Source: an uncultured Candidatus Saccharibacteria bacterium
GTDB lineage: Bacteria; Patescibacteriota; Minisyncoccia; UBA6257; GWB1-50-10
NCBI GenBank assembly: GCA_964495575.1
Contig: CAZBVS010000001.1
Span: 1-61,046 of the forward strand
Length of the DNA stretch: 61,046 nucleotides
Reading direction: 5' to 3'
Positions 28,598 to 60,172 of this stretch are shown piece by piece (the first letter of the stretch is position 1; the number at the start of each line of letters is the position of its first letter). The notes beneath the pieces are model-generated. The model saw only the letters and a list, made by a program, of their open reading frames with translations, had not been told where the DNA came from and did no database searches. Both the position numbers and the translations under genes were made by a program.

Positions 28598-29428
28598 TTA
28601 ACTTTTTAACCTTTCTTTGTATGCTTTAGTTACAGATATATCACTATGACCAAGTATCTCTTTAGCTTTTCCTAGATCTGTTCTTTTAAATAAGGAAGCA
28701 GCAAAGGAGTCCCTTAACGTCTGAGGGGTTATATTTGATATTCCAGCTTTCCTACCAAATCTATTAAGCAGCCTTTGAACCGAACGAGGACTTATTCTCC
28801 CTAGCACTCTTCCTTTTTTAGTTAAAGAAACAAACAAAGCACTTTCTTGATCATCTCTCTGTTTTAAGTAATCTTTTATTTTCTTCACCGCTAATTTTGA
28901 TAAATGAATTTTTCTCTCTTTATTGTTTTTGTCTTTTATAACAAGTATTCCCGAATCTAAATCAATTTTCTTATCTAATCTACATAACTCAGATACCTTA
29001 ATTCTAGTAGATATCAGAGTTTCAAAAATTGCTCTGTTTCTTTTTTCCCTTAATCCTTGATTTCTTAAATCTCTTAGCTTTTTTATTTCTTCCTTGCTTA
29101 ATACCTCCAGTGTCTCTTTTTGATGTTTAAACAATCGTACTTCTTCAAGGTTTAAAACCTTATCCTTTTTATTTTTAATAAACTTTAAAAAACTTCTTAA
29201 GCCTATTAAATAGTAGTTCTGGGTTGTTTTTTTAATTTTTCTTCCTTTTAGCACATTTTTGTATCTTTTAATCTTTCTTAGACTAATATCTTCCAATCTT
29301 TTTACTTTCATAGAGCTTAAGAAATTATTAACGTACCGTTTATAGTTTTTAATTGTTGTTTTATCTAACCCCTGGGTTTTTAAGTAACGTAAGTACTCTT
29401 TTTTAAGATTTTTTATATTTTCCATCAA
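28598..29428 (-). CDS. tyrosine site-specific recombinase (XerC/XerD-like integrase family)
   Basis: N-terminal SAM-like domain, catalytic region RIKVSELCRL, TPQTLRDSFA, LGHSDISVTKAY. The first conserved His reads Gln. Confidence 0.8.
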   Translation of the reverse strand: MMENIKNLKKEYLRYLKTQGLDKTTIKNYKRYVNNFLSSMKVKRLEDISLRKIKRYKNVLKGRKIKKTTQNYYLIGLRSFLKFIKNKKDKVLNLEEVRLFKHQKETLEVLSKEEIKKLRDLRNQGLREKRNRAIFETLISTRIKVSELCRLDKKIDLDSGILVIKDKNNKERKIHLSKLAVKKIKDYLKQRDDQESALFVSLTKKGRVLGRISPRSVQRLLNRFGRKAGISNITPQTLRDSFAASLFKRTDLGKAKEILGHSDISVTKAYKERLKS

Positions 29429-39479: not shown

Positions 39480-39674
39480 AAATCACTTTTTATTATTTTT
39501 AAAATATTGTTATACGACTTTATTAGATTTAGTTATAACAATATGTAGGGTAAATATAAATCCGCTCATTCTAGAGCGGATAGTTTATACTACCTTGTTT
39601 TACATTCCTATAATACACCTGTAACCCGTTCTGGTCAAGGTTGTTTTAGTATTTTTTTAAGTTATTATTAAAGT

Positions 39675-39990: not shown

Positions 39991-40392
39991 TTATTTTTTT
40001 AACTCATCACGCAGAAAATCTGCGTGATTTTCTAAAACTTTATTTTTAGTTATTAATTTTTTTACCTCCCCTTCAGAAAAAATCTGCGCCTTTCTAATAG
40101 CACTGCTTATTTTCTGAAAGAGTTGAAAAAATTCTCCCCGGAAAATTAAAAATTCATGTCCGCCTAATTTTTTTCTAAAAGCTGGTTTGTGATCCCGAAT
40201 CACAAACTCAAAATCAGGCAACTCTTCCCGAAGTTCTCGATCCAAGGTTTGGACATAATATACCTCGCCTCTTTTTTTCTTGCCTCCCGGCAATTTCCAT
40301 TTATGAGGCCTTGGTTTATTAGCATCTTGAATCAGTACTATTTTTTCTTCGGGGAAACTTTTGAAATAACCAAAACATGCCCAGTCTTTCAT
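39991..40392 (-). CDS. Nudix-like hydrolase (degenerate Nudix box)
   Basis: GGKKKRGEVYYVQTLDRELREEL approximates GX5EX7REUXEEXGU with one extra residue. Confidence 0.5.
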   Translation of the reverse strand: MKDWACFGYFKSFPEEKIVLIQDANKPRPHKWKLPGGKKKRGEVYYVQTLDRELREELPDFEFVIRDHKPAFRKKLGGHEFLIFRGEFFQLFQKISSAIRKAQIFSEGEVKKLITKNKVLENHADFLRDELKK

Positions 40393-40593
40393 GTCAACCT
40401 CCTATTTAATTCTTTATTTACTATATATATAATGTATCAAAATGAAGAAAAAGTCAAGATGTAATAACCATACTTGACAAATATTTTGATATTTGGCATT
40501 TATTTAATTGCTTAGCAGAGCCCTTTACAAAACGTCAAAATTGTTATCAACAATATATGCACACCACTTTTTGTCTTAATGGTTTTTTACCTG

Positions 40594-41002
40594 TTTTTAC
40601 CAAAAATGTTTCACGCTAAACATTTAGTATCTATTATGAGATAAACATTGATTAAAAACCCCAAGAATGTTTAGCGTGAAACATTTTTGGGGTTTTTAGG
40701 GTCAACAACATAACTGAAAAACCGGTATTATGTTTCACATGAAACATTTTTGATCTAAATAACGCTTGGAATGTTTAGCGTGAAACATTAAAAACGCACA
40801 TAGACGTAAAATTGTGAAAGATGTTTCACGCTAAACACTTTTTACCAAATATGTTTCACGCTAAACATTTTTCCATATAAAAAATGTTTGTCACTTTTTT
40901 GTCAATGTTTCACACCCGTTTTTTGGCTTAGCTTCGTTAATCAAAATGTTTCACACGTTTGTCACTTTTTTGTCAAGTTTTATAAGAACATTGACAAAAA
41001 AG
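40594..41002. repeat. array of parS-like 16-bp palindromic sites plus additional direct and inverted repeats in a 0.9-kb non-coding region
   Basis: TGTTTCACGCTAAACA occurs at 40607, 40822 and 40852. Its inverse TGTTTAGCGTGAAACA occurs at 40668 and 40772. TGTTTCACATGAAACA occurs at 40731. Half-sites TGTTTCACA occur at 40906 and 40947. The 20-nt direct repeat GTTTGTCACTTTTTTGTCAA occurs at 40886 and 40957. The inverted repeat cttttttgtcaa/ttgacaaaaaag spans 40965-41002. Confidence 0.8.
40731..40746. promoter_or_regulatory. best parS-like site (15/16 match to TGTTNCACGTGAAACA)
   Basis: tgtttcacatgaaaca read directly. It differs from the ParB-binding consensus only at the central G>A. Confidence 0.6.
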
Positions 41003-41304
41003 AAAATTAAATTATTAATAAAAAACAGATTATTTTTAATACAATAAAATATATAAAAGTCAACTAATGCTTTAATCTATCTTTTTATCATTTTTAAAAA
41101 AATGACTAACGTGTTTTTTAAAATATTAAGTTCTTAAAATAAGGAATATGAATTCAATAGATCTCAACCGAAATATTTTAAGCTTTCTGCGCAGGATCAT
41201 TGATAGAATATATTATTATCAAAACCCGATGGATTTTAAGAAAAGCCGTGATATAATTAAAACCAGTGGAAACGAACTTAAAGTAATTTTTAACTAATCT
41301 AATA

Positions 41305-43440
41305 ATGGCAAAAAAGAAAAGCAAAAAGAAAAAATCTAAAAAAGATAAGAAAAATGTTTTTTCTGACATTCACCCCGAAGTTAGAAAAAATGTTTCCGTA
41401 ATAACATTTTTAGCGTTAGCAATAATTTTCATATTAGCTTCTGTAGGTCAAGCCGGTCCTTGGGGGAGTAAGTTTTTTTCATTTTTCGATAAGCTTTTTG
41501 GCTGGGGATATTATTTACTCCCCTTAGTTTCATTTTTAATAGCCTTCTCTTTTCTTCTTCCCGAAGAAAGAAAATTTTGGAAAACAACTTTAATCAGCGC
41601 ATTATTTTTTGTAATTTCTGGATTAGGATTAATTGATATTTTGTCTCCAAAAAATGGAGGATTAACCGGTGCTTTAATTGGAGTTCTTGAAAACCCATTT
41701 GGGATTCCAGTCTCAATAATAATTACCGGCGGAATTTGCCTTACTACATTTTTAATTATTCTCAACCGACCGTTACATTTCACAAGTCTCTTCAAAAAAC
41801 TTAGAGAGAAAATAAAAAACACCTCACTAAAAGAAAAAAACCAAAAGCTAGAGTTTGGTATCTCAACCCCTATGGGAGAGGATGAAGAAGAATCAAAAGG
41901 TGAACCGGAAGAAGAAAAAGAAAATACTGAAGAAAAAAAATCTGGCTCAAAAGATAAACAGAAAGAAGACGAAGAGGAGGAACCAGAAGAAGACGAAGGG
42001 GAGGAAGATTTTGAGATTGAAACAAGAGAAAGTTCAGGTGATTATAACGCTCCGCCACTTTCAATCTTTATCTCAAAAAGTAAAAAACCAACCTCTGGAG
42101 ATCTGCGGGCCAACGCAAATATAATAAGAAGAACCTTAGACAGTTTTGGAATTCAAGTTGATATGGGTGAAGTCCAGGTTGGTCCAACCGTAACTCGTTA
42201 TACACTAAAACCAGCCGAGGGAGTTAAGCTTTCTAAGATCACCGGTCTTAATTCTGACCTGGCTCTTGCTTTGGCTGCCCACCCAATAAGAATTGAAGCT
42301 CCGATCCCGGGCAAGTCATTAGTAGGGATTGAGGTTCCAAACAAAAATGCAGCAGTAGTTAGACTTGGTAGTATTCTCGCTAAGAAGAAGTTTAAAAAAA
42401 CATCCCCTCTTACATTTGTATTAGGAAGGGGAGTTAATGGCGATCCAGTATTTGCAGATATTGCTAAGATGCCTCATGTTTTAATAGCTGGAGCAACTGG
42501 TAGTGGAAAAAGTATCTGTATCCATACATTGCTTCTTTCCCTCTTATACAAAAACTCCCCGGATGATCTAAGATTGGTTATGGTAGACCCTAAAAGAGTA
42601 GAGCTTTCTGTGTATGATGATATTCCTCATCTGATTTCCCCAGTTATTACCAAGAACAAAAAAGCGGTGGGTGCACTAAAGTGGGCAATCAACGAAATGG
42701 AAAGACGTTATGAGGTTCTACTTGATGCTGGAGCTAGAGATATAAAAAGTTTTAACAAAGGTAAAGGAGATCACATGCCTTACATATTAATAGTGATTGA
42801 TGAGTTGGCTGACCTTATGGCTTCATACGGTAGAGAGGTAGAAGGAGCTATTGTCCGACTAGCGCAGATGTCCCGGGCTGTAGGGATTCATTTGGTTGTC
42901 TCTACTCAAAGGCCTTCTGTGGAAGTAATTACTGGTTTGATTAAAGCTAACATCACAACCCGTATTGCTTTGCAGGTTGCTAGCGGGGTTGATTCAAGAA
43001 CAATTCTTGACTCCAACGGAGCTGAAAAATTATTAGGCAACGGAGACCTCCTGTTTATTTCCTCAGAGTCTTCTAAGCCTCAAAGAATACAAGGTTCATA
43101 TGTAACCGAGAAAGAGATTAAAAAAACAGTTAAGTACATAAAGAAGAATAATGAGTATGAAGAAGAGGAAGTAGACATGGATGAAAAGGATGATGCCTCT
43201 CCATCCGCAATAGATTTTGACAAGATAGAAAATGAAGAAGAAAAAGACGAGTTATATGATGAAGCGGTTAAAGTTGTTAAAAAAGCTGAAAAAGGATCCG
43301 CCTCTTTATTACAACGTCGTTTAAGAATTGGTTATGCTCGAGCAGCTCGTATCTTAGACAGCATGGAGAAGGAAGGCATAGTAGGTCCTCCGAGAGGTTC
43401 AAAGGCCAGGGAAGTTTATTTAGACGGTGAAGAGGAGTAA
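41305..43440 (+). CDS. ftsK: DNA translocase FtsK/SpoIIIE
   Basis: N-terminal transmembrane helices, acidic linker, Walker A GATGSGKS, Walker B ILIVIDELADL, C-terminal gamma winged helix SASLLQRRLRIGYARAARILDSMEKEGIVG. Confidence 0.9.
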   Translation: MAKKKSKKKKSKKDKKNVFSDIHPEVRKNVSVITFLALAIIFILASVGQAGPWGSKFFSFFDKLFGWGYYLLPLVSFLIAFSFLLPEERKFWKTTLISALFFVISGLGLIDILSPKNGGLTGALIGVLENPFGIPVSIIITGGICLTTFLIILNRPLHFTSLFKKLREKIKNTSLKEKNQKLEFGISTPMGEDEEESKGEPEEEKENTEEKKSGSKDKQKEDEEEEPEEDEGEEDFEIETRESSGDYNAPPLSIFISKSKKPTSGDLRANANIIRRTLDSFGIQVDMGEVQVGPTVTRYTLKPAEGVKLSKITGLNSDLALALAAHPIRIEAPIPGKSLVGIEVPNKNAAVVRLGSILAKKKFKKTSPLTFVLGRGVNGDPVFADIAKMPHVLIAGATGSGKSICIHTLLLSLLYKNSPDDLRLVMVDPKRVELSVYDDIPHLISPVITKNKKAVGALKWAINEMERRYEVLLDAGARDIKSFNKGKGDHMPYILIVIDELADLMASYGREVEGAIVRLAQMSRAVGIHLVVSTQRPSVEVITGLIKANITTRIALQVASGVDSRTILDSNGAEKLLGNGDLLFISSESSKPQRIQGSYVTEKEIKKTVKYIKKNNEYEEEEVDMDEKDDASPSAIDFDKIENEEEKDELYDEAVKVVKKAEKGSASLLQRRLRIGYARAARILDSMEKEGIVGPPRGSKAREVYLDGEEE

Positions 43441-43468
43441 AATAAAAAGTAGAGAAGAAACAAAAAAA

Positions 43469-44179
43469 ATGGCTAATAATTCTCAAAAAAATTTTTCATC
43501 AATATTGATAGAAGCGATGAAGGCTCAAGGAATGAATGAATCACAGTTAGCTGATGCAACAGGCATCTCTGAAAGATTCATCAAGCTTTTGATAAAGAAT
43601 GATCTTAAAAAACTTCCTCCCGCACCTTATCTCCACGGCTATATTTTAAAAATAGCTGACGTTGTTGACATGGACGGAGAAAAAATCTGGGAAAGATATT
43701 TTAAAAATAATAACAATCTAAGGTCTTCCGGTAACACAGATCATCTACCTAAAAATAGATTCTCTGTTTCTAAAATAAACACCAAGATCTTCTTAGGTGT
43801 TATTGTAATAATTGCAGTAATCGCTTATTTCATAATCCGAAGCTTTTTGGGGGTTGATATTGCCCGAGAGTTGAACCTTGAAGGCTTCAATGAAGAGCCT
43901 GTAATTTCTGAAGAAGCCTCTTACAACATCAAAGGAAATATTAGCCCTAAGTACCAGTTGAAAATTAACCAACAATCTGTTTATCCTGAAAGTGATGGAG
44001 ACTTTTCAAAAACGATAGATCTCAGCCCAGGATTTAATACCGTAATGTTTAACATTAAAGGACCCCTAAAAAGAGAAGAAAAGATTGCTAAAGAAATATA
44101 TTACAAAACAGATAATCAAGAAAATATTGAACAAGCAACTACAACATCAGTTACCACCTCGTCTACAATTAATAACTAA
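43469..44179 (+). CDS. RodZ-like HTH-domain membrane protein
   Basis: HTH region [23 protein letters not shown], single transmembrane helix [17 protein letters not shown], beta-rich C-terminus. I prefer the start at ATG 43469 over 43427, which would overlap ftsK; the choice is uncertain. Confidence 0.6.
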
Positions 44180-44187
44180 ATAATTTA

Positions 44188-45240
44188 ATGGCAAAAAAGA
44201 AAAAGAAAAAAAAGAAGAAAAAAAAGAAAAAAAAGGATAAAGACATCGAAGAGTTAAAGGACTCCCTTCAATCTCAATATGGGGAAGGGGCCATAATGAA
44301 ATTAGGTGACCAAAAGAAGATTGACGTAGAAAGTATTCCATCTGGTTCATTTTCTCTTGATATTGCTTTAGGTGTAGGCGGCCTTCCAAAAGGAAGAGTA
44401 GTTGAGATATACGGACCTGAATCAAGTGGAAAAACAACTCTTGCTCTTCACGCTATTGCCGAGACTCAAAAGCAGGATGGTAAAGCTGCCTTTATTGATG
44501 CCGAACATGCTCTTGATCCTGAGTATGCAAAAAAGATTGGTGTTAAAGTTAACGAATTAATAATTTCTCAACCGGACAGCGGAGACGAGGCTCTAAACAT
44601 TTTAGAAGACATTGTTCGTTCTGGGGCGGTAGACGTAGTAGTTATAGACTCTGTAGCTGCCCTTACTCCTAAAGAAGAAATAGAAGGAGAGATGGGGGAT
44701 AAGCATGTTGGTTTACAGGCCCGACTTATGTCCCAAGCTCTTAGAAAGATAACCTCCGTTGCAGGCAAATCTAAAACCATTGTAATCTTTATCAATCAAA
44801 TCAGAATGAAGATTGGGGTTATGTATGGAAACCCTGAAACCACTCCTGGTGGTCGTGCTCTTAAATTCTATTCCTCAGTTCGACTTGATATTCGTAGAAA
44901 AGCTCAGATTAAGAAGAAGGATGAGGTCGTAGGCAACAGAGCAAAGGTTAAGGTAGTTAAGAATAAGGTAGCTCCTCCGTTTAAAATAGCTGAGTTTGAT
45001 ATCCTTTATGGTAAAGGTATTTCATATGAAAGCGATGTTTTAAATACCGCTTTAAAATATGGCGTAGCTAAAAGAAAAGGACCTAGCTATAGATACGACG
45101 GAGAAAGCATTGCTGTAGGTTTTGATAACGCAAGAAGAGAATTACAAAAAGACACCGAGCTTCTTGAAGAGATAATGGAAAAAACTAAGGAAGCTATAAA
45201 AGAAGCCAATGAATCAAAGGAAAAAGAAGATGATGATTAA
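44188..45240 (+). CDS. recA: recombinase RecA with N-terminal poly-lysine extension
   Basis: [19 protein letters not shown] (Walker A), [19 protein letters not shown], and L2 loop [20 protein letters not shown]. The N-terminus is [19 protein letters not shown]. Confidence 0.95.
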
Positions 45241-45248
45241 ATAAAAAT

Positions 45249-45608
45249 ATGAAATTTATCGGCAAACTTTTTATATCAGTAGTTTCTAATATTGTAGCGA
45301 TTATGGCTTCCGCCTATTTCATACAAGACTTTATTTTTGAAGGAGATTTTATAGATCTCGTTACAGCTGCTGCAGTATTTACAGTAATTAATTTACTCTT
45401 AAGACCTGTTTTAAAATTACTATTTGGTCCACTTATTGTTTTAACGTTAGGACTTTTCGTTATTGTTATAAATGCTCTCACTATATACATTCTTGACATT
45501 ATAAGTGGAAGCCTTACAATACAGGGGTACTTACCACTGATTATCGCTACTATTATATTCAGTGTTGTAAACAGCTTTATAAATATTTCAGCACGTTGGG
45601 TTAAATAA
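45249..45608 (+). CDS. DUF360/phage-holin-4-like four-helix membrane protein
   Basis: 119 aa with four hydrophobic helices; the pattern LLRPVLKLLFGPLIVLTLGLF is typical of this family, from memory. Confidence 0.5.
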   Translation: MKFIGKLFISVVSNIVAIMASAYFIQDFIFEGDFIDLVTAAAVFTVINLLLRPVLKLLFGPLIVLTLGLFVIVINALTIYILDIISGSLTIQGYLPLIIATIIFSVVNSFINISARWVK

Positions 45609-45611
45609 ATT

Positions 45612-45821
45612 ATGTTAACTATTTTACAAGTTATTGTATCCGTCGCTTTAATCGTTTTTGTTTTATTACAAGAACGAGCCAGTGGCCTTGGAGCCATGGG
45701 CGGAGGTGGTGGAGGAACCCCTTATCAAACCAGAAGGGGAATGGAAAAGTTTATATACTGGGGGACAATCGTGCTTGCCTTTGCATTTGTGGTTTTAGCT
45801 ATTCTTAATCTTGTTTATTAA
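45612..45821 (+). CDS. secG: preprotein translocase subunit SecG
   Basis: 69 aa with two helices and VLLQERASGLGAMGGGGG. Confidence 0.75.
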   Translation: MLTILQVIVSVALIVFVLLQERASGLGAMGGGGGGTPYQTRRGMEKFIYWGTIVLAFAFVVLAILNLVY

Positions 45822-45913
45822 TAAGCGTTTAAAAACAATTTTCTAATTTAGTACCATTTTTTTAATACAAGAATTTGGTAATCTTATAAATAATAAACTC
45901 TAATAATTTCTGT

Positions 45914-47554
45914 ATGAAAATTCCTAAACTTATTTTTTCCTCTTTATCAAGCTTTGAGCGTAAGCTTTTTACTGCGTTATTTGTTTTATTCTTAATAGCG
46001 GTAGCTTCTAGAGGAGTTATTGCGATTAATAAAAACAGTGATTTTGTTCCGGTAAGAGGCGGTTATTATAAAGAAGGGATTGTTGGTCAACCAACCGCTA
46101 TAAACCCAGTAATCTCTGATAAATCCGTTGATCAAGCTCTAAGTTCATTAGTCTATGCCGACATTAAAGACCTAAAGTCTAATATTGAGGTTAAGAACGG
46201 AGCAAAAACTTATATCTTAAAACTAAAAGAAGATTTAAAGTGGAGTGATAACAAACCTCTTACCAGTGATGATATTATTTTCACCATCAAAACTATTCAG
46301 AATCCTGAAATTCAGTCTCCATATTACAAAACCTGGAAAGGGATTGTGATAGAGAGAATAAGTGAGTTGCAGATTAAATTTACTCTCCCTGGACCGTATG
46401 TTTATTTCGAAGATAACATTAATAAACTACCCGTAATTCCTAAGCATATTTTTGGAGAAATTCCAGCGTCTAACATTCGACTGTCTTCGTATAATCTAGA
46501 GCCAGTATCAAGCGGCCCATATGTTTTCAAAAACTTTTCTAAAAAAAGAAATGGCTTTATAACCGAGTACCACTTTAAGATAAATAACAAGTTTGCCGGT
46601 GATAAACCATATATTAAAGATTTTTATTTCCGATTTTACAACAATAACGCTGAATTATTAAGCGATTTTAAAACAAGAAAAATAGATGGTTTTAGTATTT
46701 CTGGACTACCTGACAAAAGAGTTAAAAACCTTCCTAAAGCAGTGATTGAAAATGTTTCTATCCCTCGTTACTACGCTATCTTCTTTAACCCTAAATCAAC
46801 CTCTATCTTAAAAAATGATGAATTTCGAAAAGCTCTTTCTATCTCAATAGATCGGAAGAAACTTGCTAACGAAGTTTTATCCAATGAAACAAAAGCCTTA
46901 AATAATCTATCTGATCTTGTTGAAGAAAATTCAGTCTTACCACCTAATAAAAACAAGGCTGAAGAAATAATTTCTGATATAAAGAATGATCAAGAAGGAG
47001 ACTTAACATTTGAGATTATTGTCCCTGAAGTTGATTTTATAAAGGAAACTGCTGAATTTATAAAACAGGAGTGGGAATCAGTAGGAATTGATAATGTTCA
47101 GATTGTTTCCTTAAAGAATAATGATTTTCATGACGCGGTTATCAGAGAAAGAAACTATGAAGCTGTTGTCTTCGGAAATGTTTTAAAAAATTCTCTAGAC
47201 TTATTCCCATTTTGGCATTCCTCGGAAAGGTTTTATCCAGGATTCAATCTTTCTTTCTATTCCAACGATAAAGTAGATACTATCCTGGAAAACATTCGAC
47301 AGACAAAAGATGAAGAAAAAAGAAAAAAAGAATTTTTGGAAGCTTCTGAGATAATCCATGATGATTATCCCGCAGTATTCTTGTACTCTCTTCCTTACAC
47401 CTACGCTCACCATGAACGACTTTATGGTTTTGATTTAAGTAATGATATATCAAGTGCCAGTGATCGTTTTGAAAACGTTAATGAGTGGTATGTGACCCGA
47501 GCTAGGGTAATTAAAGAAGATAATACAGTTACTACCTCAACCTCCGCAAATTAA
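45914..47554 (+). CDS. ABC-transporter substrate-binding protein, family 5 (peptide/nickel type)
   Basis: N-terminal anchor and a size of about 545 aa. Patterns GGYYKEGIVGQPTAINPV and KWSDNKPLTSDDIIFT are typical of SBP_bac_5 proteins. Confidence 0.6.
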   Translation: MKIPKLIFSSLSSFERKLFTALFVLFLIAVASRGVIAINKNSDFVPVRGGYYKEGIVGQPTAINPVISDKSVDQALSSLVYADIKDLKSNIEVKNGAKTYILKLKEDLKWSDNKPLTSDDIIFTIKTIQNPEIQSPYYKTWKGIVIERISELQIKFTLPGPYVYFEDNINKLPVIPKHIFGEIPASNIRLSSYNLEPVSSGPYVFKNFSKKRNGFITEYHFKINNKFAGDKPYIKDFYFRFYNNNAELLSDFKTRKIDGFSISGLPDKRVKNLPKAVIENVSIPRYYAIFFNPKSTSILKNDEFRKALSISIDRKKLANEVLSNETKALNNLSDLVEENSVLPPNKNKAEEIISDIKNDQEGDLTFEIIVPEVDFIKETAEFIKQEWESVGIDNVQIVSLKNNDFHDAVIRERNYEAVVFGNVLKNSLDLFPFWHSSERFYPGFNLSFYSNDKVDTILENIRQTKDEEKRKKEFLEASEIIHDDYPAVFLYSLPYTYAHHERLYGFDLSNDISSASDRFENVNEWYVTRARVIKEDNTVTTSTSAN

Positions 47555-47561
47555 AATAAAT

Positions 47562-47646
47562 GCTCTTGTGGTGGAATTGGCAGACACGCAGCGTTCAGAT
47601 CGCTGTCCGCTTAAAGCGGGTGGAGGTTCAAATCCTTTCAAGAGCA
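47562..47646 (+). tRNA. tRNA-Leu(CAG), type II
   Basis: Acceptor gctcttg/caagagc, anticodon stem cagcg/cgctg with loop ttCAGat, variable arm ccgcttaaagcggg, T loop ttcaaat; 85 nt. Confidence 0.85.
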
Positions 47647-47696
47647 CAACTAAATTTAGTCGAAATTAATTTAAAACATTTTTAAATAAAAATAAA

Positions 47697-49499
47697 ATGT
47701 CTAAAAAACAAAAAACAAAAAAGAAAAAAAACAAAAAGGTCCATCCCAAAAATAAAATTGGGAAACCTAAAGCTATGAGAGTTACCCAGATGGAAAAGAC
47801 TAACATAAAGCCATCTATGAAAAAGAAACCTAAAGGAGAGATGGTTAGGTTCTGTGCTCTTGGTGGTCTAGAGGAGATCGGTCGTAATATGATGTTTCTT
47901 GAGTATAAAGACGAGATTCTAATTATCGATATGGGGCTTCAGTTCCCTGAAGATGAAACTCCTGGGATTGATTTCATTATCCCTAACACCAAGTATCTTG
48001 AAATGAAAAAGAAAAAGATAAAAGGAGTTATTATTACCCATGGTCATTATGATCACATTGGTGCTATTCCTTACTTACTAGATCGATTAGGAAATCCAAA
48101 GATATACACCACCGAGCTTACTAAAGAAGTGATTAAAAAAAGACAAGGAGATTTTCCAAACTCTCCTAAGCCTATTTTTGAAACAGTTAAACCCGAAGAA
48201 ACACATCAGATATCTGAAAACTTCAAGGTTGAATTTTTTGGGGTTGAACATAATATTCCAGAAGGGGTCGGTCTTCTTATCCACACCCCTATCGGAAAAG
48301 TAGTTCACCCTGGTGAATTTAAATTCGATTATGACAAAGAGGGTAATCCTAAACATCTGGATATCTGGGATAAACTAGGTGAACAAGATATCCACACTTT
48401 AATGTTAGACTCGACTGGGTCTGAGACTCCTGGTTTTTCTGTCTCGGAAAGAGTTGTTGAAGAAGAACTTGAAAAATTATTCAAAAAAGCAGAAGGTAGG
48501 ATAATTGTTAGCACCTTCTCTTCTTTATTAGACCGCCTTAAGGAAATAATAAAGATAGCAGAAAAGATGAACAAAGTTGTTGCTATCTCAGGTTACTCTA
48601 TGCAGTCCAACCTTGATATTGCTAAACGCCTTGGTTTCATAAAAACCAAGAAAGACACTCTAGTACCTTTGAAGGATATTAATAAGTATCCTGACAACAA
48701 GGTTATGATTCTCTCTACCGGAGCTCAAGGAGAAGAAAACGCTAGCTTAATGAGGATTGCTAACGGAGAACATAAACATATCTCTATCAAAGATGATGAT
48801 ACCGTAATTCTTTCCTCCTCGGTTGTCCCTGGGAACGAAAAGAGTGTTCAAGACCTCAAGGATAACCTTACCCGACAAGGAGCAAGCATCTATGATTATA
48901 AAATGCTTGATATCCACTCTTCTGGTCACGCTCCCCAAGAAGAGTTAAAAACTGTTATGAAAAAAGTAGATCCAAAGTTCTTCCTACCTATTCACGGCTT
49001 TTATTTCATGCGTAAAAGGAACGCTTTAATGGCTCAAGAAACAATAGGACTAGATCCTAAGAATACAATTTTATCTGATAACGGGTTGATTGTAGAGTTC
49101 AAGAAAGACTCCGTTGAGATCACCGGAGAGCAGGTTCCATCATCTTATGTCTTAGTGGACGGCTTAGGGGTAGGAGATATAGGAGAGGTTGTACTAAGAG
49201 ATAGACGGACTTTAGCTGAAGAAGGGATGGTTGTTCTTATTACAACAATCAGTAAGAAAAATGGAAAGGTTCTGAAAAGCCCTGATATTATATCCCGTGG
49301 CTTTGTTTATCTGAAAGATAATAAAGGGCTTCTTAATAAAGTCCGTCGAAAAATAAGAGGAATCATCGGCAGGATACCAAATCGTCAGTCTCTTGATATA
49401 GATTATGTAAAAACTCTTATCCAAGATCAGATCGGTAAGTATCTTTATAAAAGAACTAAAAGACGACCAATGATTCTTCCTGTTATTATTGAAGTTTAA
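47697..49499 (+). CDS. rnj: ribonuclease J (metallo-beta-lactamase/beta-CASP) with K-rich N-terminal extension
   Basis: HGHYDHIGAIP motif and DIHSSGHA (beta-CASP motif C region); length 600 aa. The N-terminus is MSKKQKTKKKKNKKVHPKNK. Confidence 0.9.
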   Translation: MSKKQKTKKKKNKKVHPKNKIGKPKAMRVTQMEKTNIKPSMKKKPKGEMVRFCALGGLEEIGRNMMFLEYKDEILIIDMGLQFPEDETPGIDFIIPNTKYLEMKKKKIKGVIITHGHYDHIGAIPYLLDRLGNPKIYTTELTKEVIKKRQGDFPNSPKPIFETVKPEETHQISENFKVEFFGVEHNIPEGVGLLIHTPIGKVVHPGEFKFDYDKEGNPKHLDIWDKLGEQDIHTLMLDSTGSETPGFSVSERVVEEELEKLFKKAEGRIIVSTFSSLLDRLKEIIKIAEKMNKVVAISGYSMQSNLDIAKRLGFIKTKKDTLVPLKDINKYPDNKVMILSTGAQGEENASLMRIANGEHKHISIKDDDTVILSSSVVPGNEKSVQDLKDNLTRQGASIYDYKMLDIHSSGHAPQEELKTVMKKVDPKFFLPIHGFYFMRKRNALMAQETIGLDPKNTILSDNGLIVEFKKDSVEITGEQVPSSYVLVDGLGVGDIGEVVLRDRRTLAEEGMVVLITTISKKNGKVLKSPDIISRGFVYLKDNKGLLNKVRRKIRGIIGRIPNRQSLDIDYVKTLIQDQIGKYLYKRTKRRPMILPVIIEV

Positions 49500-49508
49500 T
49501 TTTATATT

Positions 49509-49537
49509 TTGATTTTCTTGGAGATGAAGGCTAAAAT
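49509..49537 (+). promoter_or_regulatory. candidate trpS promoter (TTGATT-17-TAAAAT), -10 box 9 nt from the ATG
   Basis: Hexamers and spacing read directly. Confidence 0.4.
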
Positions 49538-49546
49538 AAAATCATC

Positions 49547-50521
49547 ATGAGTAAACCCATTTTAATATCAGGAATTCAGCCTACTGGGCGTCTTCATGTT
49601 GGAAATTATCTTGGAGCAATTAAAAATTTTAAAAAACTTCAAGATTCAGGTGATTACCAACCTTATTTTTTCGTGGCTGACCTCCATTCATTAACTACTG
49701 AATTCGATCCTAACGAAAAACGAGACCAGGTTAGAGAGATAATAAGAACTTACCTTAAAGCTGGTCTTGATCCAAAAGAATCAACTATTTTCGTTCAGTC
49801 TGAGATTCCTCCTAACGTTGAGCTAAGCTGGATTCTTTCCACAGTTACTCCTTACGGAATGCTTTCCCGAATGACTCAGTTTAAGAAGAAAAGTAAAAAT
49901 CAAAAAAACAATATTAACGCCGGCCTATTCTTCTATCCTGTATTAATGGCAGCGGATATTGTTTTATATGATGCTCAGTACGTTCCTGTAGGAGAAGATC
50001 AGATTCAACACCTCGAATTTACCAGAGAGATAGTGAGAAAATTTAATAACCGGTACGGTGATATCTTTAAAGAACCTGAAGAGCTACTGACTCATACTTC
50101 AAGGTTAATGAGCCTTACTGATCCAGAAAACAAAATGTCCAAATCTTCCCCTAAAGGATGTCTATTCCTTGATGATTCGCCTAAAGAGATAAAGAAAAAG
50201 ATTATGTCTGCCGTAACTGATTCCGGCAAAGAGATAAAGTATGACGAAAAGAATAAAAAGGCAGTTTCCAACTTGATGAATATTTACCACGCTTTTTCTG
50301 GTAAAAAGATAAAAGAAATTGAAAAAGAGTTTGAAGGAAAAGGATACGGTGATTTTAAAAAGACTTTAGCAGAACTAGTTACTAAAAAGCTGGAACCGTT
50401 CCGTGAAGAAAAATACTCGGATAAAGAAATTGAAAAAATAATTAAACAAGGGAATAAAAAAGCTTTAAAAAGAGCAGATAAGAAGATTAAAAAAGTCAAA
50501 AAAGCTCTAGGTTTGTTGTAA
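49547..50521 (+). CDS. trpS: tryptophan--tRNA ligase
   Basis: SGIQPTGRLHVGNYLGA (HIGH-type motif) and KMSKS. Confidence 0.95.
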   Translation: MSKPILISGIQPTGRLHVGNYLGAIKNFKKLQDSGDYQPYFFVADLHSLTTEFDPNEKRDQVREIIRTYLKAGLDPKESTIFVQSEIPPNVELSWILSTVTPYGMLSRMTQFKKKSKNQKNNINAGLFFYPVLMAADIVLYDAQYVPVGEDQIQHLEFTREIVRKFNNRYGDIFKEPEELLTHTSRLMSLTDPENKMSKSSPKGCLFLDDSPKEIKKKIMSAVTDSGKEIKYDEKNKKAVSNLMNIYHAFSGKKIKEIEKEFEGKGYGDFKKTLAELVTKKLEPFREEKYSDKEIEKIIKQGNKKALKRADKKIKKVKKALGLL

Positions 50522-50542
50522 ATAAAAATAAATAAAAATATT

Positions 50543-50563
50543 CCCCAGCAAATAATGCTGGGG
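50543..50563. terminator. hairpin terminator shared by trpS (+) and the convergent small RNA (-)
   Basis: ccccagca-aataa-tgctgggg. The T-run is better on the minus strand (aatattttt). Confidence 0.6.
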
Positions 50564-50580
50564 GGTCTTAATTTTTAAAA

Positions 50581-50679
50581 GAAGCCTTACGTGGCAGCAC
50601 AGGGATTCGAACCCTGCAACGACCTTGTTATTCTCGGCCGCACCTGCTGACAGCGCCAGCTTAACTGCCTTGCTTCGCT
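50581..50679 (-). ncRNA. tRNA-like small RNA with canonical T-arm, own strong promoter and terminator; not a standard tRNA
   Basis: Minus strand: GAAGCAAGGCAG...CUGCCACGUAAGGCUUC closing helix, hairpin GCUG-GCGCUGU-CAGC, arm GCGGCC-11nt-GGUCGU, and T-arm CAGGG-UUCGAAU-CCCUG (50600-50616). No anticodon arm can be drawn. Confidence 0.5.
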
Positions 50680-50685
50680 ATATTG

Positions 50686-50713
50686 ATTATATCACTTTTT
50701 TATCTCAAGTCAA
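50686..50713 (-). promoter_or_regulatory. strong promoter (TTGACT-16-TATAAT) driving the tRNA-like RNA
   Basis: Hexamers read on the minus strand; the -10 box ends about 7 nt before the RNA core. Confidence 0.6.
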
Positions 50714-50785
50714 CAGTGTGACAGATAAGCAAGTATCAAAAAAACCGGCCCTCAAAGGCCGGTTTTTTATATAGAAGCTTGCTTT

Positions 50786-51871
50786 TTATTCTACAAACTT
50801 CAAGTTTATCCTTTTGTCTTCTTTATTCACCTCTTTAATCTCAAAGGTGTAAGTCTCTTCTTTGTCAATCTTTTCTTTCATCTCTTCCTCTCCGCCAAAC
50901 TCTGTTACGTGAACCTGTCCTTGAATCTCGTCATCAAGCTTTATTACAGCCCCAAAAGGATTTAAGCTATACACCTCTCCTTCAACCCCGTCTCCTTCTT
51001 TGTATCTTTCTTCAACCTCGTCCCAAGGATCTTTTTCAAGAGCCTTTAGGGATAGTGATATCTTTCCGTCTTTTATCTCAATAATCTTTGCTTTTATTTC
51101 ATCATCCATACTTACTACCTCTTTAGGGTTGTCAATAATTCTGTGAGCAAGCTCTGAGATATGAATTAATCCTTCTACATCAGGATTATCGGTAAACTGG
51201 ATAAACACTCCGAAATCAGCTATTCCGGTTACTATTCCCCCTACTATCTGGCCTTCTTCATAATCTTTTACTAGTTCTTTAGAGCTTAGCTTGTTGGCTG
51301 CTTTTTCAGAAACAATTAGTTTGTTAGATTTTTGGTTTGCGTCAATTATCTTTACCTCAAGTTTTTCTCCAACAAGTTTTTCAAGCTCTTTTTCAATTTT
51401 CTTAGGGTCGTTGTCTTCAATATCGGGATAATTTTCAGAAGTTAACTGAGAAGCTGGTAAGAAAGCTTGCACATTTTCTATCTTAGTTAACAAACCTCCT
51501 TTGTTAGCGCTGTAAGGTTTTGTTTCGATGACTTCTTCTTTTTCGTATAGCTCATTTATCTTCAACCAGTTTTTCTGCCTTTCTGCCTCTGAAAGGGATA
51601 GCTCAACCAACCCTTCATCGTTATTTGCTTTTACAACCTTTGCTTGAATAGCATCACCCACCTCTGATTCTTTGACGACGTTCTTTGCTCCAAGTAATTC
51701 TCCACGGTAAATGATACCGGTGCCAAATTTTCCTAAATCAACCATTACCTCTCTTGAGCTCTTTTCAATGATCTTTCCTTCTACTAAATCACCCGGCTTC
51801 AAGAATGCAAAAACATCGGGGTTGTCTTTAATAAACTTTATAAATGGATTTGTATTTGGTTTTGTTGTCAT
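50786..51871 (-). CDS. rpsA: 30S ribosomal protein S1 (four S1 domains)
   Basis: Repeated S1 OB-fold signatures (GDLVEGKIIEK, GDAIQAKVVK, GQIVGGIVTGIADFGVFIQF, GDGVEGEVYSLNPFGAVIKL). Confidence 0.85.
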   Translation of the reverse strand: MTTKPNTNPFIKFIKDNPDVFAFLKPGDLVEGKIIEKSSREVMVDLGKFGTGIIYRGELLGAKNVVKESEVGDAIQAKVVKANNDEGLVELSLSEAERQKNWLKINELYEKEEVIETKPYSANKGGLLTKIENVQAFLPASQLTSENYPDIEDNDPKKIEKELEKLVGEKLEVKIIDANQKSNKLIVSEKAANKLSSKELVKDYEEGQIVGGIVTGIADFGVFIQFTDNPDVEGLIHISELAHRIIDNPKEVVSMDDEIKAKIIEIKDGKISLSLKALEKDPWDEVEERYKEGDGVEGEVYSLNPFGAVIKLDDEIQGQVHVTEFGGEEEMKEKIDKEETYTFEIKEVNKEDKRINLKFVE

Positions 51872-52125
51872 AGTTTTATATATCGAAGCCCATAGCCTCG
51901 GTGAACTACATATATAATGTGTAAATTCACTTCAAGTATTGTATACCAAACTTTTTAAAAAGCCAAATTTTTATGAATCTATATAAATTATATTCTTTTT
52001 TTCACTTGAAAATATGAGCCTATAATGTGATAATTAAGGTAAGTTAACAGGGGTGCCTCGTGCGTCAACGATGACAGCAATGTCATCGAAATTTTATGGA
52101 TACCCGTTAAAATTTTTATTTTTTT

Positions 52126-52698
52126 ATGATAATAACTTATCAAGACGACAATTATTTCAAGCTTCAATCAGGGGACGACACTATATTAGTAGATCCGACA
52201 GATCAGAGATCTTTTCGAGGAGCAAACATAGTTTTGAACACTAAAAAACCTGCTGTTACCGAAGAACCTTCCTCAGAAGAAGAGATATTTTGGGTAGATC
52301 ACAGCGGTGAATATGAGATAGGAGGAACCAGGATTAACGGATGGCAATCCTCTTCAAACGATGAAGAAAAAACAATTTACCGTGTAGATTTTGAAGGATT
52401 TCGGGTAGTTATCTTCGGGTTTTTAGAAGAAGTGCCTGAAGAAGAGCTTCAAGAACATTTAACAGACGTAGACATTGTAATATGTCCTGCCGGAGGAGAC
52501 AGCCTTGTTAAACCTAACAAAATAGCCAAGTTTATTCGTCAGATTGAACCTGGCCTTATTATCCCTTCCTTCTCTAAGGATCTGAAAAGCTTTTTAAACG
52601 AGTTTAACACCAAAGATTGCAAGGAAGAAGAAAAAATTGTTTTAAGGAAGAACGATGTTAAGAAGGGGGAGATGGAAGTACGTTGTTTAAAAAGTTAA
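52126..52698 (+). CDS. hypothetical protein (faint resemblance to MBL-fold UPF0173-type proteins; no His motif)
   Basis: The N-terminus MIITYQDDNYFKLQSGDDTILVDP resembles MBL-fold starts, but HxHxDH is absent. It follows a TATAAT at 52021 and a leader of about 100 nt containing the hairpin gatgaca-gca-tgtcatc. Confidence 0.5.
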   Translation: MIITYQDDNYFKLQSGDDTILVDPTDQRSFRGANIVLNTKKPAVTEEPSSEEEIFWVDHSGEYEIGGTRINGWQSSSNDEEKTIYRVDFEGFRVVIFGFLEEVPEEELQEHLTDVDIVICPAGGDSLVKPNKIAKFIRQIEPGLIIPSFSKDLKSFLNEFNTKDCKEEEKIVLRKNDVKKGEMEVRCLKS

Positions 52699-52699
52699 G

Positions 52700-53119
52700 A
52701 TGTCCTTTGTTGAAAAAACAAAAAATATAATAAAAGGAATAACTAGAAAGATCAGAAAAATTAGACGCTCTGATCAGAAAACAAAAAGAAACTGGTTGAT
52801 TCTAAGCACCGCTGTAGCCACGATCTTAATAATAGGGTTATGGGTCTGGTATATAAATTTTACTGTCTCTGGTATCTCTGGTATAAACAAAGAGGCTAAT
52901 GATTCTGAGGTTGGTAACATTGAATCAGAACCAAATAAATCTGGAGTTATTAATATCTTTGTTAGAGGTTTCGTAGTTATTAAAGATGCCGTAGCTCAAA
53001 GATTTAAAGGAATGTTTACGGAAGTAAATTCTTTAATTAAAAGAACAAAAGATAGTTTTAATAATGTAAAAGAATACACTCCGGAGGCTTCAAGTAGTAT
53101 TCCTTTTGAAACACAATAA
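52700..53119 (+). CDS. membrane-anchored hypothetical protein
   Basis: Basic N-terminus and transmembrane helix [21 protein letters not shown]. Tightly packed between the neighbouring genes. Confidence 0.5.
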
Positions 53120-53121
53120 AC

Positions 53122-55605
53122 ATGTCTAAGAAAAAAAAGAAAAAATCAAATAAAAAAGAAGACAAGAAGCCTGAAAGTGAGATAAGAGTTTCTAAAATCA
53201 CAGAAGAGCTTCAAGAATCATACATTGATTACGCAATGTCTGTCATTGTCTCTCGAGCCATCCCTGATATCCGGGATGGTCTCAAACCTGTCCAAAGAAG
53301 AATTCTTTGGGCAATGTGGGATGATAACTTAACTTATAAATCTAAGTTTAGAAAATCAGCTAATGTTGTTGGTCAGGTTCTTGGACGTTATCACCCTCAT
53401 GGAGACTCCGCCGTGTACGACGCTATGGCTCGAATGGCTCAGGATTTCTCTCTTCGGTACCCTCTAATAGATGGGCAAGGTAACTGGGGATCCATTGACG
53501 GAGACAGCCAGGCTGCTATGCGATATACCGAGTGTCGATTAACAAAGATATCCGGTGAACTTTTAAAAAACATTGAGAAGGATACCGTTGATTGGCAGGC
53601 TAACTACGATAACACTAGGCAGGAACCCAAGTTTCTGCCGGCTAAGCTCCCTGGTTTGCTGTTAAACGGAACTATGGGGATCGCTGTAGGTATGGCCACT
53701 AGTATTCCTCCCCATAACCTTTCTGAGATAATTGATGCTACCAAACATTTAATTAAAAACCCTGATGCAACTGTAAAAGAGTTAATGCGGTATCTTCCAG
53801 GGCCTGATTTTCCAACCGGAGGAGAGATATATGAAGCTGAAGAGCTAGAAAAAGCGTATTCTACAGGCCGAGGTTCTGTAGTTATTCGCGCTGTTACCGA
53901 TGTCGAAAAAAGAAAGAAGCACATGACGATCGTTGTAGATGAAATTCCTTACCAAGTTAACAAAGCCCGGTTGATTGAAAAAATAGCCAACCTAGTTAAG
54001 GACAAAAAGATTCAGGGGATAAAAGATGTTCGTGATGAATCAGGCCGAGATGGGATGAGGATTGCTATTGAGTTGAAACAAAGCGTAAATCCTCAAAGAA
54101 TCCTTAATCAACTTTATAAAAACACCCGACTTCAAACCAAGTTCCACTTTAATATGGTGGCTTTAGTTGATGGAATCCAGCCTCAGGTAGTTTCTTTAAA
54201 AGATATTCTCTCAGAATATATTAAGCATCGAAAGAAAACTATCACCCGAAGATTAAAGTACCGACTTAAAAAAGCAGAGGACAGAGCCCACATATTAGAA
54301 GGATTGGTGGTAGCGTTGGATGATATAGATGCTGTTATAAAAACAATTAAAAAATCTGAGAACAGGAAAAAGGCTCATAAAAACTTAGTTAAAAAATTTG
54401 ATCTTTCTAAGGTTCAAGCCGATGCTATTTTAAACATGAAGCTTCAGAGCCTTGCTTCCTTGGAAGCTAAGAAGATTAAAGATGAACTAGAAGAAAAGAA
54501 AGAACTTATCAAAGAGCTTAAAACCATCCTTAAAAGCGATCAGAAAATTCTTGATATTATTATTGAAGAGCTTGATGAAATTAAAGAAGAGTATGGTGAC
54601 GAAAGGAAAACTAAAATGGTTGAAGGTTCTCTCAAAGAATTTAAAAAAGAAGACTTTATTCCTCAGAAAGAAGCTGTCATTCTCCTTACTAATGACGGAT
54701 ACATTAAAAGAATGACTCCTAAATCCTTCCGTCTTCAAGGCAGAGGAGGCCGTGGTCTTAAGGGTCTAAACCTCAAAGAAGAAGATAAGGTATCTAAACT
54801 ATTAGTAGCAAACACGCATGATGATATTCTTTTCTTCACCGACAGTGGGAATGTTTTCAAAACCCGGGTATATGAAATACCAAAATCATCCCGAACCGCC
54901 AAAGGTAAATTGGTCCACACCTTTCTTGGTCTCTCAGATGATGATAAAATCACCGCTGTCCTAGCGTATAACAGTGAAGAAAAGGAAGATGATGAGAAAT
55001 ACTTTGTCATGGGTACCGAGAACGGAATGGTAAAGAAGACCAAAATATCAGAGTTTGAAAACGTAAGAAGTACCGGAATAATTGCAGTTGGTCTTAAGGA
55101 TGATGATACTCTTCGCTGGGTAAAACGTTCTACCGGAGATGACGATTTCTTGTTTGTAACTAAAAACGGCCAGTCAATCAGATTTAGCGAAGATGAGGTT
55201 AGAGCAATGGGTCGTACCGCTTCTGGAGTAAAGGCGGTTGATCTGAAGAATAAGGATAAGGTTACTGGTTTTGTAGTAATTGACGAAGGAAAAAACAATA
55301 AAGATCAAAAGCTATTGGTAATTACAGAAAACGGATATGGTAAGAAAACTCCTATTAAAGAATATAAAACTCAGCGTCGTGGTGGAAAAGGAGTGGCTAC
55401 TGCTAAAACAACTAAGAAAACCGGTTCTTTGGCTGCCGCAAGCTTAATCGATAAAGAAGTGGATGACGTTATAGCTTTCACTGAAAAAGGTTTAGTTATT
55501 AAAACAGAGATAAAAGATATTCGCACCAGTGGACGCTCTACTCAAGGGGTGAAAATAATGAACGTAAATGACGATGATTCCTTGGTAGGCATCTTTTGTT
55601 CATAA
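53122..55605 (+). CDS. gyrA: DNA gyrase subunit A with K-rich N-terminal extension
   Basis: [14 protein letters not shown], active-site region [11 protein letters not shown]-terminal beta-pinwheel repeats. The N-terminus is [18 protein letters not shown]. Confidence 0.95.
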
Positions 55606-55648
55606 CTTTATTTCGTTTTCTTTCGAAATTAGTTTAGAATAATTATAT

Positions 55649-56944: not shown

Positions 56945-56946
56945 CC

Positions 56947-57378
56947 ATGAATAATGTATTAAATATTTTAATAAGCGCTTTTGTTCTTTTATTAGTTGGC
57001 TTTTTTGCTTTTTCTCCGCTAGCGTTTGCTGCTCAGAAAGGTGCCCCCGATAGCGGCTCTATAATCTGGGAGGGGGTAACCTGTAATCAGCAAGGAGAAG
57101 ACCCTTGTGATTTTTGTGACATGATTAAGGTAGTCTCTAATATTGTTAATTTTCTAACCCGGTTAGCATATATAGTGGCCGCCGCTGTAATTGTAGCCGG
57201 GGGAGTGATGATAATGGTAAGTGGGGGTAATGAAAAAAGATTCTCTAAAGGTAAGAGTTTAATTACCAACGCTGTTATAGGTATTGTTATTACCTTAACC
57301 GCTTGGATTATTGTAAATACCCTTTTCCACATCATAACCGGTGATGAACAGTTTATTTGGTCCGAAATAGTGTGTTAG
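56947..57378 (+). CDS. VirB2/TrbC-like T4SS pilin paralogue with Cys-containing N-terminal segment
   Basis: Signal peptide ...PLAFAA, Cys segment CNQQGEDPCDFCDM, then helix-basic loop-helix AAAVIVAGGVMIMVSGGNEKRFSKGKSLITNAVIGIVITLTAWIIV. The protein ends in Cys. Confidence 0.65.
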   Translation: MNNVLNILISAFVLLLVGFFAFSPLAFAAQKGAPDSGSIIWEGVTCNQQGEDPCDFCDMIKVVSNIVNFLTRLAYIVAAAVIVAGGVMIMVSGGNEKRFSKGKSLITNAVIGIVITLTAWIIVNTLFHIITGDEQFIWSEIVC

Positions 57379-57387
57379 AATAAACAT

Positions 57388-60164: not shown

Positions 60165-60172
60165 CACTTATT

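Follow-up and report, generated by a model that had tools for sequence, protein, structure and literature searches.

A 912-bp gap between genes, upstream of ftsK in an uncultured member of the Patescibacteria, appears on balance to hold an origin-proximal chromosomal ParB-type centromere made up of six parS-like sites and two half-sites. The gap lies at positions 40393–41304 of the stretch of DNA analysed here (the window), which is a complete 61,046-bp contig of a metagenome-assembled genome (MAG) whose closest named relatives are Candidatus Paceibacterota/Jorgensenbacteria (Patescibacteria or candidate phyla radiation, CPR). The original prediction, made from the sequence of the window, had proposed a candidate centromere/origin region here and had likened it to a plasmid centromere. 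The centromere-like, parS-related array is supported because the sites occur above chance expectation, are kept in relatives where perfect parS copies are found, and have equivalents in syntenic positions; the plasmid and the replication origin are not. Two close relatives, L007 (from GTDB) and L019 (from a metagenome), which share 86–87 % nucleotide identity with the window, were used for comparison.

All six 16-mers that had been related to the ParB-binding consensus were recovered by direct sequence and pattern matching. Five are exact copies of a hybrid 16-mer, TGTTTCACGCTAAACA, each matching parS at 14 of 16 positions: site 1 at 40607–40622 (plus strand, identical in L019), site 2 at 40668–40683 (minus strand), site 4 at 40772–40787 (minus strand), site 5 at 40822–40837 (plus strand, centre CACGCT) and site 6 at 40852–40867 (plus strand), sites 4 and 6 being placed by the pattern match and the alignment with L019. 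Site 3 (40731–40746), TGTTTCACATGAAACA with the centre CACATG, matches the parS consensus at 15 of 16. The array spans 260 bp, with start-to-start spacings of 61, 63, 41, 50 and 30 bp that leave spacers of 14–47 bp. In the hybrid, which can be written TGTTTCAC|GCTAAACA, the left half agrees fully (8/8) with the canonical half of parS and the right half reads TGTTTAGC on the other strand. The central CG is kept (CAC|GCT), and the same asymmetry is seen in all five copies, of which three face one way and two the other. Counted in full, the repeated unit is 18–25 bp long, (CCAAAA)ATGTTTCACGCTAAACAT(T). When up to three mismatches were allowed, the 16-mer pattern matched the contig 9 times against 0.56 expected, a count not reached in any of 100 shuffles. 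There are 10 copies of TGTTTCAC in the 61 kb (1.8 expected), and eight of these fall inside the gap, among them the half-sites at 40906 and 40947.

The two half-sites, present as TGTTTCACA, belong to a module at 40876–41002 (plus strand) that directly follows the array and is 94.5 % identical to L019. A repeat search confirmed its other predicted parts, namely the 20-nt direct repeat GTTTGTCACTTTTTTGTCAA at 40886 and 40957 and the 12-bp inverted repeat CTTTTTTGTCAA / TTGACAAAAAAG, which pairs 40965–40976 with 40991–41002.

Every site of the array has its counterpart in L007 and L019, and in both the equivalents of sites 3 (centre CACGTG) and 5 are perfect parS, TGTTTCACGTGAAACA. Hybrid and canonical sites thus take each other's place between relatives. 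Window and L019 are 96 % identical at codon positions 1 and 2, 62 % at 4-fold degenerate sites and 88.6 % over the whole gap, the most conserved part of which (95 %) is a block at 40520–40606 holding TTATCAACA, ATATGCACA and GGTTTTTTACCTGTTTTTACC. As other short intergenic spacers are 74–100 % identical, the gap is constrained, but not uniquely so. One of these spacers, the 195 bp between nusA and the acylphosphatase gene (39480–39674), is 96 % identical to L019 against the 62 % at 4-fold sites and may have a regulatory role or encode an RNA.

A further parS-like site that was not in the original prediction, TGTTTCCCGTGAAACA (15/16), was found by pattern matching inside leuS at 14322–14337. 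It lies in a variable, non-conserved segment of the protein, where it encodes D-V-S-R-E-T, and uses the Arg codon CGG; CGT, one synonymous change away, would give perfect parS. By our own estimate, about 0.005 such 15/16 matches would be expected by chance in 61 kb. A site within coding sequence agrees with ParB and speaks against a promoter operator. Apart from the leuS site the array motif occurs nowhere else in the contig, including the other 18 intergenic regions, and in a related MAG the exact 18-mer is found at the ftsK-upstream locus only. The idea, raised with the original prediction as its alternative, that the motif is an operator found at many promoters is thus not borne out. Classical operator function is also unlikely in the gap itself, because the nearest palindromes are approximately 385 bp from the likely ftsK promoter and approximately 150 bp from the likely NUDIX promoter, with no overlap. 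A LexA/SOS operator upstream of recA was likewise set aside, the sites lying at least approximately 385 bp from the ftsK promoter and occurring inside leuS as well. The 8/8 half-site, the exchange of hybrid for perfect sites, the often dyad-symmetric centres and the near-perfect parS in leuS all suggest that the genome has a protein with ParB-like specificity.

The placement of the array also agrees with a parS locus. In two relatives that have array and dnaA on one contig, they are 19 kb (ZHAO22-1 scaffold_1) and 41 kb (JBBDUA010000366) apart, as expected of parS, which typically sits close to the origin. In L026 the left end of the window aligns approximately 2.1 kb before dnaA; judged by synteny, the contig would stop approximately 2–4 kb short of dnaA on its left side and the array would be approximately 43–45 kb from that gene.

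In order to follow the sites further, the exact 18-mer was scanned across 185,579 GTDB species, giving 17 loci. All six loci in Patescibacteria, which are those of L007, three or four Saccharibacteria-type genomes (L005, L006, L008 and L013) and L015, lie approximately 0.3–1.3 kb upstream of ftsK-rodZ-recA even though the coding DNA is only approximately 65 % identical, and the metagenome locus L023 has the 18-mer in the same ftsK-upstream setting. The other 11 are non-Patescibacteria loci in unrelated contexts and none adjoins ftsK, recA or nusA. Six of them are from gut Bacteroidales and Clostridia (L002:6168, L004:986, L010:243, L016:5140, L017:1158 and L018:517). In L002, L004, L017 and L018 the 18-mer is at the 3′ end of a homologous open reading frame (ORF) of 169–174 aa, probably a mobile-element gene unrelated to the array, and L010 and L016 (where the locus is cut) have it with the same conserved flanks. 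Three more (L009:1–5286, L011:4812–8000 and L014:1–5871; 34–36 % GC) share flanks around the 18-mer; two of these MAG contigs are labelled Christensenella or Christensenellaceae and one 'uncultured bacterium'. The 18-mer is found there in 3–6-kb stretches without an ORF of at least 120 aa under code 11, with little change under code 4, and no tandem repeats or rRNA were found in them. The remaining two matches are inside unrelated ORFs.

Syntenic loci were also fetched via FtsK homologues, and a metagenome scan with a RodZ alignment gave seven loci. Other Paceibacteria have arrays in the syntenic place: L032 has five copies of TGTTTGTCAACAAACA in both orientations (inner hexamer GTCAAC), L035 has four tandem copies of TGTTTCCATGGAAACA with an exact 41-bp period (CCATGG), and L037 has TGTTTCGAGCGAAACA and TGTTTCGAGCTAAACA (CGAGCG and CGAGCT) together with four TTGTTTCAAAAAAACA. 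L031 carries TATTTCACGATAAATA and TGTTTATGCATAAACA, and L038 carries TGTTTAGGTTCAAACA. The arms TGTTT...AAACA are constant across lineages and the inner hexamers are CACGCT, GTCAAC, CCATGG, CGAGCG, ATGCAT and AGGTTC, the centres often being dyad-symmetric. L034 has no full palindrome but includes the half-site module of the window almost verbatim, with separate half-sites, TGTTTAGC three times and TGTTTCAC twice, that correspond to the two halves of the window hybrid. A module ATGTTT..TTTGTCAA-TGTTTCnn follows the arrays of the window, L035 and L037, and its half-sites share three inner bases with the palindrome of their own lineage (CAC in the window, CCA in L035 and CG(A/C) in L037).

Several other features of these loci were noted. 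TTGACAAA has four of its six contig copies in the 912-bp gap (40474, 40898, 40969 and 40991), and TTGTCAA flanks half-sites in L034, L035 and L037 and forms the core of the L032 palindrome (GTCAAC/GTTGAC); TTGACAAA/TTGTCAA may be a second binding motif. An ultra-conserved non-coding block that has no Rfam match and is not in the window surrounds the ftsK-upstream palindrome in other Patescibacteria (L008:4920–5075, L015:178–420, L038:6526–6790, L039:5345–5560, L036:4476–4680, L031:8128–8360 and L022:2800–3780). It contains one to three copies, usually two direct ones, of GTAGGTTT(C/T)ATCGCATTATC and an inverted repeat, CAGCCTGTTAAACA..TGTTTTACAGGCTG, and ends in T-rich repeats with a period of approximately 9 nt (GGTTTTTC..). 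An ultra-conserved 22-mer, GTAGGTTTCATCGCATTATC.., stands beside the palindromes in other lineages. The block is approximately 90 % identical between Saccharibacteria and the Paceibacterium L038 despite the different inner hexamer. ORFs lie in or beside the ftsK-upstream non-coding locus at L022:2882–3349, L034:4630–5088 and L039:4863–5303; those of L034 and L039 are LAGLIDADG homing endonucleases (Pfam) and that of L022 looks similar, which suggests that the locus is a highly conserved target.

A number of findings weigh against a ParB-type centromere. No ParA, ParB, DnaA or DnaN domain was found by Pfam in the scanned ORFs of the contig, as the original prediction had said of parA, parB, dnaA and dnaN, and tblastn with Spo0J and Soj queries found no ParB or ParA in approximately 498 kb of related loci, which include rpmH-dnaA-dnaN neighbourhoods; parAB usually lies in the neighbourhood of dnaA. 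Chromosomal parS is normally almost invariant across phyla, and here the inner hexamer differs among the related lineages L032, L035, L037, L031 and L038. A ParB reading would then need a co-evolving ParB specificity, and the hexamer change better fits a fast-evolving or different binder, or one that contacts the arms only. The five repeated sites are asymmetric, and TGTTTAGC departs from parS at positions that we take to be specificity-determining in the ParB/Noc family. The spacers between the sites are conserved too (88 % against 62 % at 4-fold sites), which a plain parS array does not need. The co-variation of half-sites with full sites could come from local duplication or gene conversion and not from protein specificity.

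Part of this evidence would be accounted for if the palindromes bind a non-ParB dimeric protein encoded elsewhere, a nucleoid organiser or regulator that recognises ATGTTT-N6-AAACAT, with the likeness to parS a partial convergence and the array serving the divergent NUDIX/YraN and ftsK-rodZ-recA units as a platform for organisation or regulation. We consider this possible but unlikely. It fits with the outer arms TGTTT/AAACA being all that is constant across lineages, with no ParB having been found in the contig or the related loci, with the conservation of the whole gap, spacers included, and with the conserved position beside ftsK-rodZ-recA. However, 150–385 bp separate the sites from the likely promoters, so that there is no overlap, the neighbourhood does not consistently encode a candidate binder, and the 8/8 half-site, the two perfect parS sites of the relative and the leuS site are hard to explain by convergence. 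The HTH_25 protein was rejected in this role. It is orthologous to RodZ and part of an old ftsK..rodZ..recA neighbourhood, and lineages with the same site differ in its helix-turn-helix.

A second alternative, which we regard as very improbable, is that the palindromes act as DNA or RNA hairpins (akin to repetitive extragenic palindromes and bacterial interspersed mosaic elements (REP/BIME), terminators or small RNAs) or as tyrosine-recombinase sites with a 6-bp crossover. Conserved arms around a variable 6-nt centre are what a stem-loop, or the arms and overlap of a recombinase site, would give, and the gap includes two strong hairpins. Site 2 is embedded in a 46-nt near-perfect palindrome, AAAAACCCCAAGAATGTTT..AAACATTTTTGGGGTTTTT (40653–40698), identified by inverted-repeat search and folding, which folds at −16.5 kcal/mol as single-stranded DNA (z = −7), and the 12-bp inverted repeat at 40965–41002 folds as a DNA hairpin of −11.5 kcal/mol. 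Site 2 has a flipped asymmetric centre in L019, where one G-T pair becomes G-C, and the lone site of L015 is in the opposite orientation to that of the Saccharibacteria, with the neighbouring motif pointing the same way in both; hairpin loops behave in this way. Because of these two flips the orientation of the asymmetric centre is probably unimportant, and it may change through hairpin-mediated events. FtsK is encoded next to the gap and a Xer-type integrase 11 kb away. (The gene for this tyrosine recombinase is at 28598–29428, to the left of the array, and L035 has one in the same neighbourhood.) On the other hand, single sites form weak hairpins (−2.9 to −4.7 kcal/mol), their centres are often self-complementary and leave no loop, they stand in both orientations between divergent genes, and other intergenic regions contain no dispersed copies. 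Rfam searches of the window (at gathering thresholds), of the gap (at E≤1) and of 15 related loci matched no family apart from tRNAs, the other hits being sub-threshold and of hairpin type. A dif-like 28-mer is likewise lacking, the best matches to the dif sites of Escherichia coli and Bacillus subtilis having 9–10 mismatches and none being in the gap, and the 14–47-bp spacers are in our judgement too short for recombination. A dif/Xer site was accordingly rejected, the locus being near dnaA in relatives where a dif site would be expected at the terminus, as were dispersed REP/BIME palindromes, of which no copies occur in the other 18 intergenic regions and for which the 18-mer, at a single locus in the related MAG, gives no sign.

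We also judge it improbable that the gap is a replication origin or part of a bipartite one, with TGTTTCAC(A) as divergent DnaA boxes and 41004–41154 as the unwinding element. Like bacterial oriC, it is a long gene-free region with repeats, a very AT-rich tract and a switch in gene orientation; unlike oriC, it has no canonical DnaA-box cluster, no trio run and no adjacent dnaA. Small repeat arrays are typical of origins (Chen et al. 2020, PMC7111523). The half-site TGTTTCACA matches the relaxed box TTWTNCACA at 8 of 9 positions, and TTATCAACA, a box variant that is also found in the dnaA–dnaN gap of relatives, lies in the best-conserved block. Approximately 300 bp of very AT-rich DNA had been predicted as a possible unwinding element. 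The tract at 41004–41154 (11–14 % GC; 85 % identical to L019) is the lowest 100–150-bp stretch of the contig, a position it shares with another stretch at 11 %, but the 300 bp as a whole are 21 % GC and rank third lowest, so that the composition is exceptional over approximately 150 bp only.

The two DnaA-box-like 9-mers of the original prediction, TTATCAACA (40544) and ATATGCACA (40555), are present but at chance level. TTATCCACA-like boxes with up to one mismatch number 27 in 61 kb against 17.5 expected, with one in the gap; canonical boxes are thus not enriched there, nor does a DnaA-trio triplet run accompany the boxes, although the AT-rich tract is present. The repeated unit is a dyad-symmetric 16–18-mer and not a 9-mer, and it differs in its inner bases from lineage to lineage, in contrast to the conserved DnaA and DnaA box. 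In relatives a DnaA box and CTA-triplet run are found directly upstream of dnaN, 19–41 kb from the array: in three Paceibacteria, the dnaA–dnaN gaps of L026 (18021–18176), L029 (18192–18409) and L033 (17863–18006) end with a DnaA box (TTATCAACA or TTATCCACT), a CTA-triplet run and the dnaN start. Box-plus-trio is reportedly the arrangement of bacterial origins.

The gene orientations had been described correctly, being almost entirely minus at 0–29 kb, almost entirely plus at 41–58 kb and mixed at 29–40 kb. Genes thus diverge from 29–41 kb, and a plot of cumulative GC skew over the contig gave an all-site minimum with a sign change at approximately 41 kb. Both would suit an origin, but the skew follows gene orientation, and the sites of L031 and L035 are not at a gene-orientation switch. 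In order to separate gene-orientation from strand effects, 4-fold degenerate sites were used. Coding-strand skew at these sites is +0.27 for minus-strand genes at 0–29 kb (n=688), −0.47 for plus-strand genes left of 37.7 kb (n=323) and −0.31 for plus-strand genes right of 41 kb (n=440). The values of +0.27 and −0.31, which should agree if both represent leading-strand genes of one origin, differ by approximately 9 standard errors. Hence, gene orientation accounts for most of the minimum at 41 kb, which is no origin mark. On the plus strand the 4-fold skew is approximately −0.37 to the left of the gap and approximately −0.13 to the right, where minus-strand genes are few (n=96), and being negative on both sides it shows no switch of replication-linked strand composition at 41 kb.

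The same sites offer one point in favour of an origin. Over 0–37 kb the minus strand is strongly G-rich whatever the gene orientation, as if this stretch were replicated leftward. The G-richness (1–37700) weakens right of 41 kb (41300–61046) without inversion. That the left 37 kb is replicated towards dnaA is therefore suggested, but this conflicts with the oriC-like signature in the dnaA–dnaN gap of relatives; in ZHAO22-1 the 4-fold asymmetry is weak and of opposite sign, and the 4-fold skew of relatives is too weak or sparse for replication direction. With canonical boxes at chance, no sign change at 4-fold sites, and the box and trio signature at dnaA–dnaN of relatives, the origin part of the original prediction is not supported.

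The plasmid reading is not supported either. The contig is a piece of the chromosome, since it carries NusA, FtsK, RecA, GyrA, aminoacyl-tRNA synthetases, rpsO and tRNAs, and it has neither a plasmid setting nor an adjacent par operon. The sopC centromere of the F plasmid is a tandem-repeat array, and the array resembles it in being a tight tandem array in one non-coding stretch, as does the exact 41-bp tandem repeat of L035. It differs in the chromosomal replicon, the chromosomal parS-type site, the irregular spacing in both orientations and the lack of an adjacent partition operon.

Chromosomal parS (TGTTNCACGTGAAACA) is origin-proximal and sometimes clustered, as in Caulobacter, Myxococcus and Corynebacterium. 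The array resembles chromosomal ParABS systems in its 16-bp dyad site, of which one half is that of parS and which has perfect copies in a relative, in the additional site inside a gene, and in its distance of tens of kb from dnaA. It is unlike them in packing six sites into 260 bp, where known chromosomal clusters span kilobases, in its dominant site being a fixed asymmetric hybrid (CAC|GCT) with a lineage-variable inner hexamer, and in its conserved locus by ftsK with parAB not nearby and not found in the contig or related loci. Site specificity in the ParB/Noc family is said to have diverged between parS and the Noc-binding site TATTTCCCGGGAAATA. The lineages examined here likewise keep the outer arms and change inner positions, and TATTTCACGATAAATA of L031 and TGTTTCCATGGAAACA of L035 occupy sequence space between parS and the Noc-binding site, but here the changes are known from DNA alone and no paralogue was identified.

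ParB of Pseudomonas aeruginosa is reported to bind half-parS sites (PMC10419367, PMC5961200), and isolated TGTTTCAC-type half-sites similarly accompany full sites in the gap. The half-sites of Pseudomonas are scattered across the genome, whereas those described here form a conserved module directly after the array, beside TTGTCAA.

If the gap is a ParB-type centromere, dimers of a ParB-family CTPase would recognise the 16-bp sites, at least via the canonical half TGTTTCAC. Once bound, they would form closed clamps and slide away into the flanking DNA. With six such sites in 260 bp, the rate of loading would be high at a single point, the clamps would spread over the ftsK/nusA neighbourhood, and the resulting complex would mark the origin-proximal region for segregation and/or SMC loading. 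These steps are those of the established ParABS pathway; we infer both that ParB is the binder and that the genome encodes it.

As had been predicted, the gene-free region of 0.9 kb is the longest in the window, the 912-bp gap ranking first among the intergenic regions of the contig. Its borders are a NUDIX gene (39991–40392, minus strand) on the left, beyond which are the NusA, pyrophosphatase and acylphosphatase genes, and ftsK (41305–43440, plus strand) on the right, followed by a HTH_25/RodZ-like gene and then recA. The likely ftsK promoter, as read from the sequence, includes an extended −10 element, TGATATAAT, at 41249–41257 (plus strand), 47 nt upstream of the ATG, and this region is 97–100 % conserved in L019. 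A 49-aa ORF at 41148–41297 in the gap is probably non-coding, because a 1-nt indel shifts its frame in L019. At the left end of the contig, a type IV secretion system (T4SS) cluster at 799–11321 (VirB4/TraG P-loop, PrgI and T4SS pilin) adjoins KsgA, with its genes oriented towards dnaA, and three more T4SS pilin paralogues are found at 56947–58191 (56.9–58.2 kb). In relatives jag-yidC-rnpA-rpmH | dnaA-dnaN come after this cluster, an order described for Patescibacteria (PMC12102498).

A broader possibility, which we put forward tentatively and think rather unlikely, is that the gap upstream of ftsK represents a so far undescribed chromosome-organising locus found throughout the Patescibacteria, with a fast co-evolving pair of site and protein, possibly tied to replication, at which two half-site specificities, TGTTTCAC and TGTTTAGC, are possibly read. 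In its strongest version replication would start or be organised at this locus and not in the dnaA–dnaN gap, which would explain why 0–37 kb appears to be replicated towards dnaA.

To our knowledge, almost nothing is known about how the chromosome is copied and segregated in the ultra-small, host-dependent Patescibacteria. A search of the literature found neither the 16-mers nor a paper linking ParB or parS with this group. The skew result matters for the prediction of origins in MAGs, as a GC-skew minimum in a short contig can arise from gene orientation alone. If the array is a true centromere, it would provide a defined DNA target, and the single conserved 18-mer in cultivable Saccharibacteria would make ParB/SMC biology directly testable there. 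A fixed locus whose inner hexamer varies from lineage to lineage would also be unusual, in that centromere specificity would have evolved on a chromosome rather than on a plasmid.

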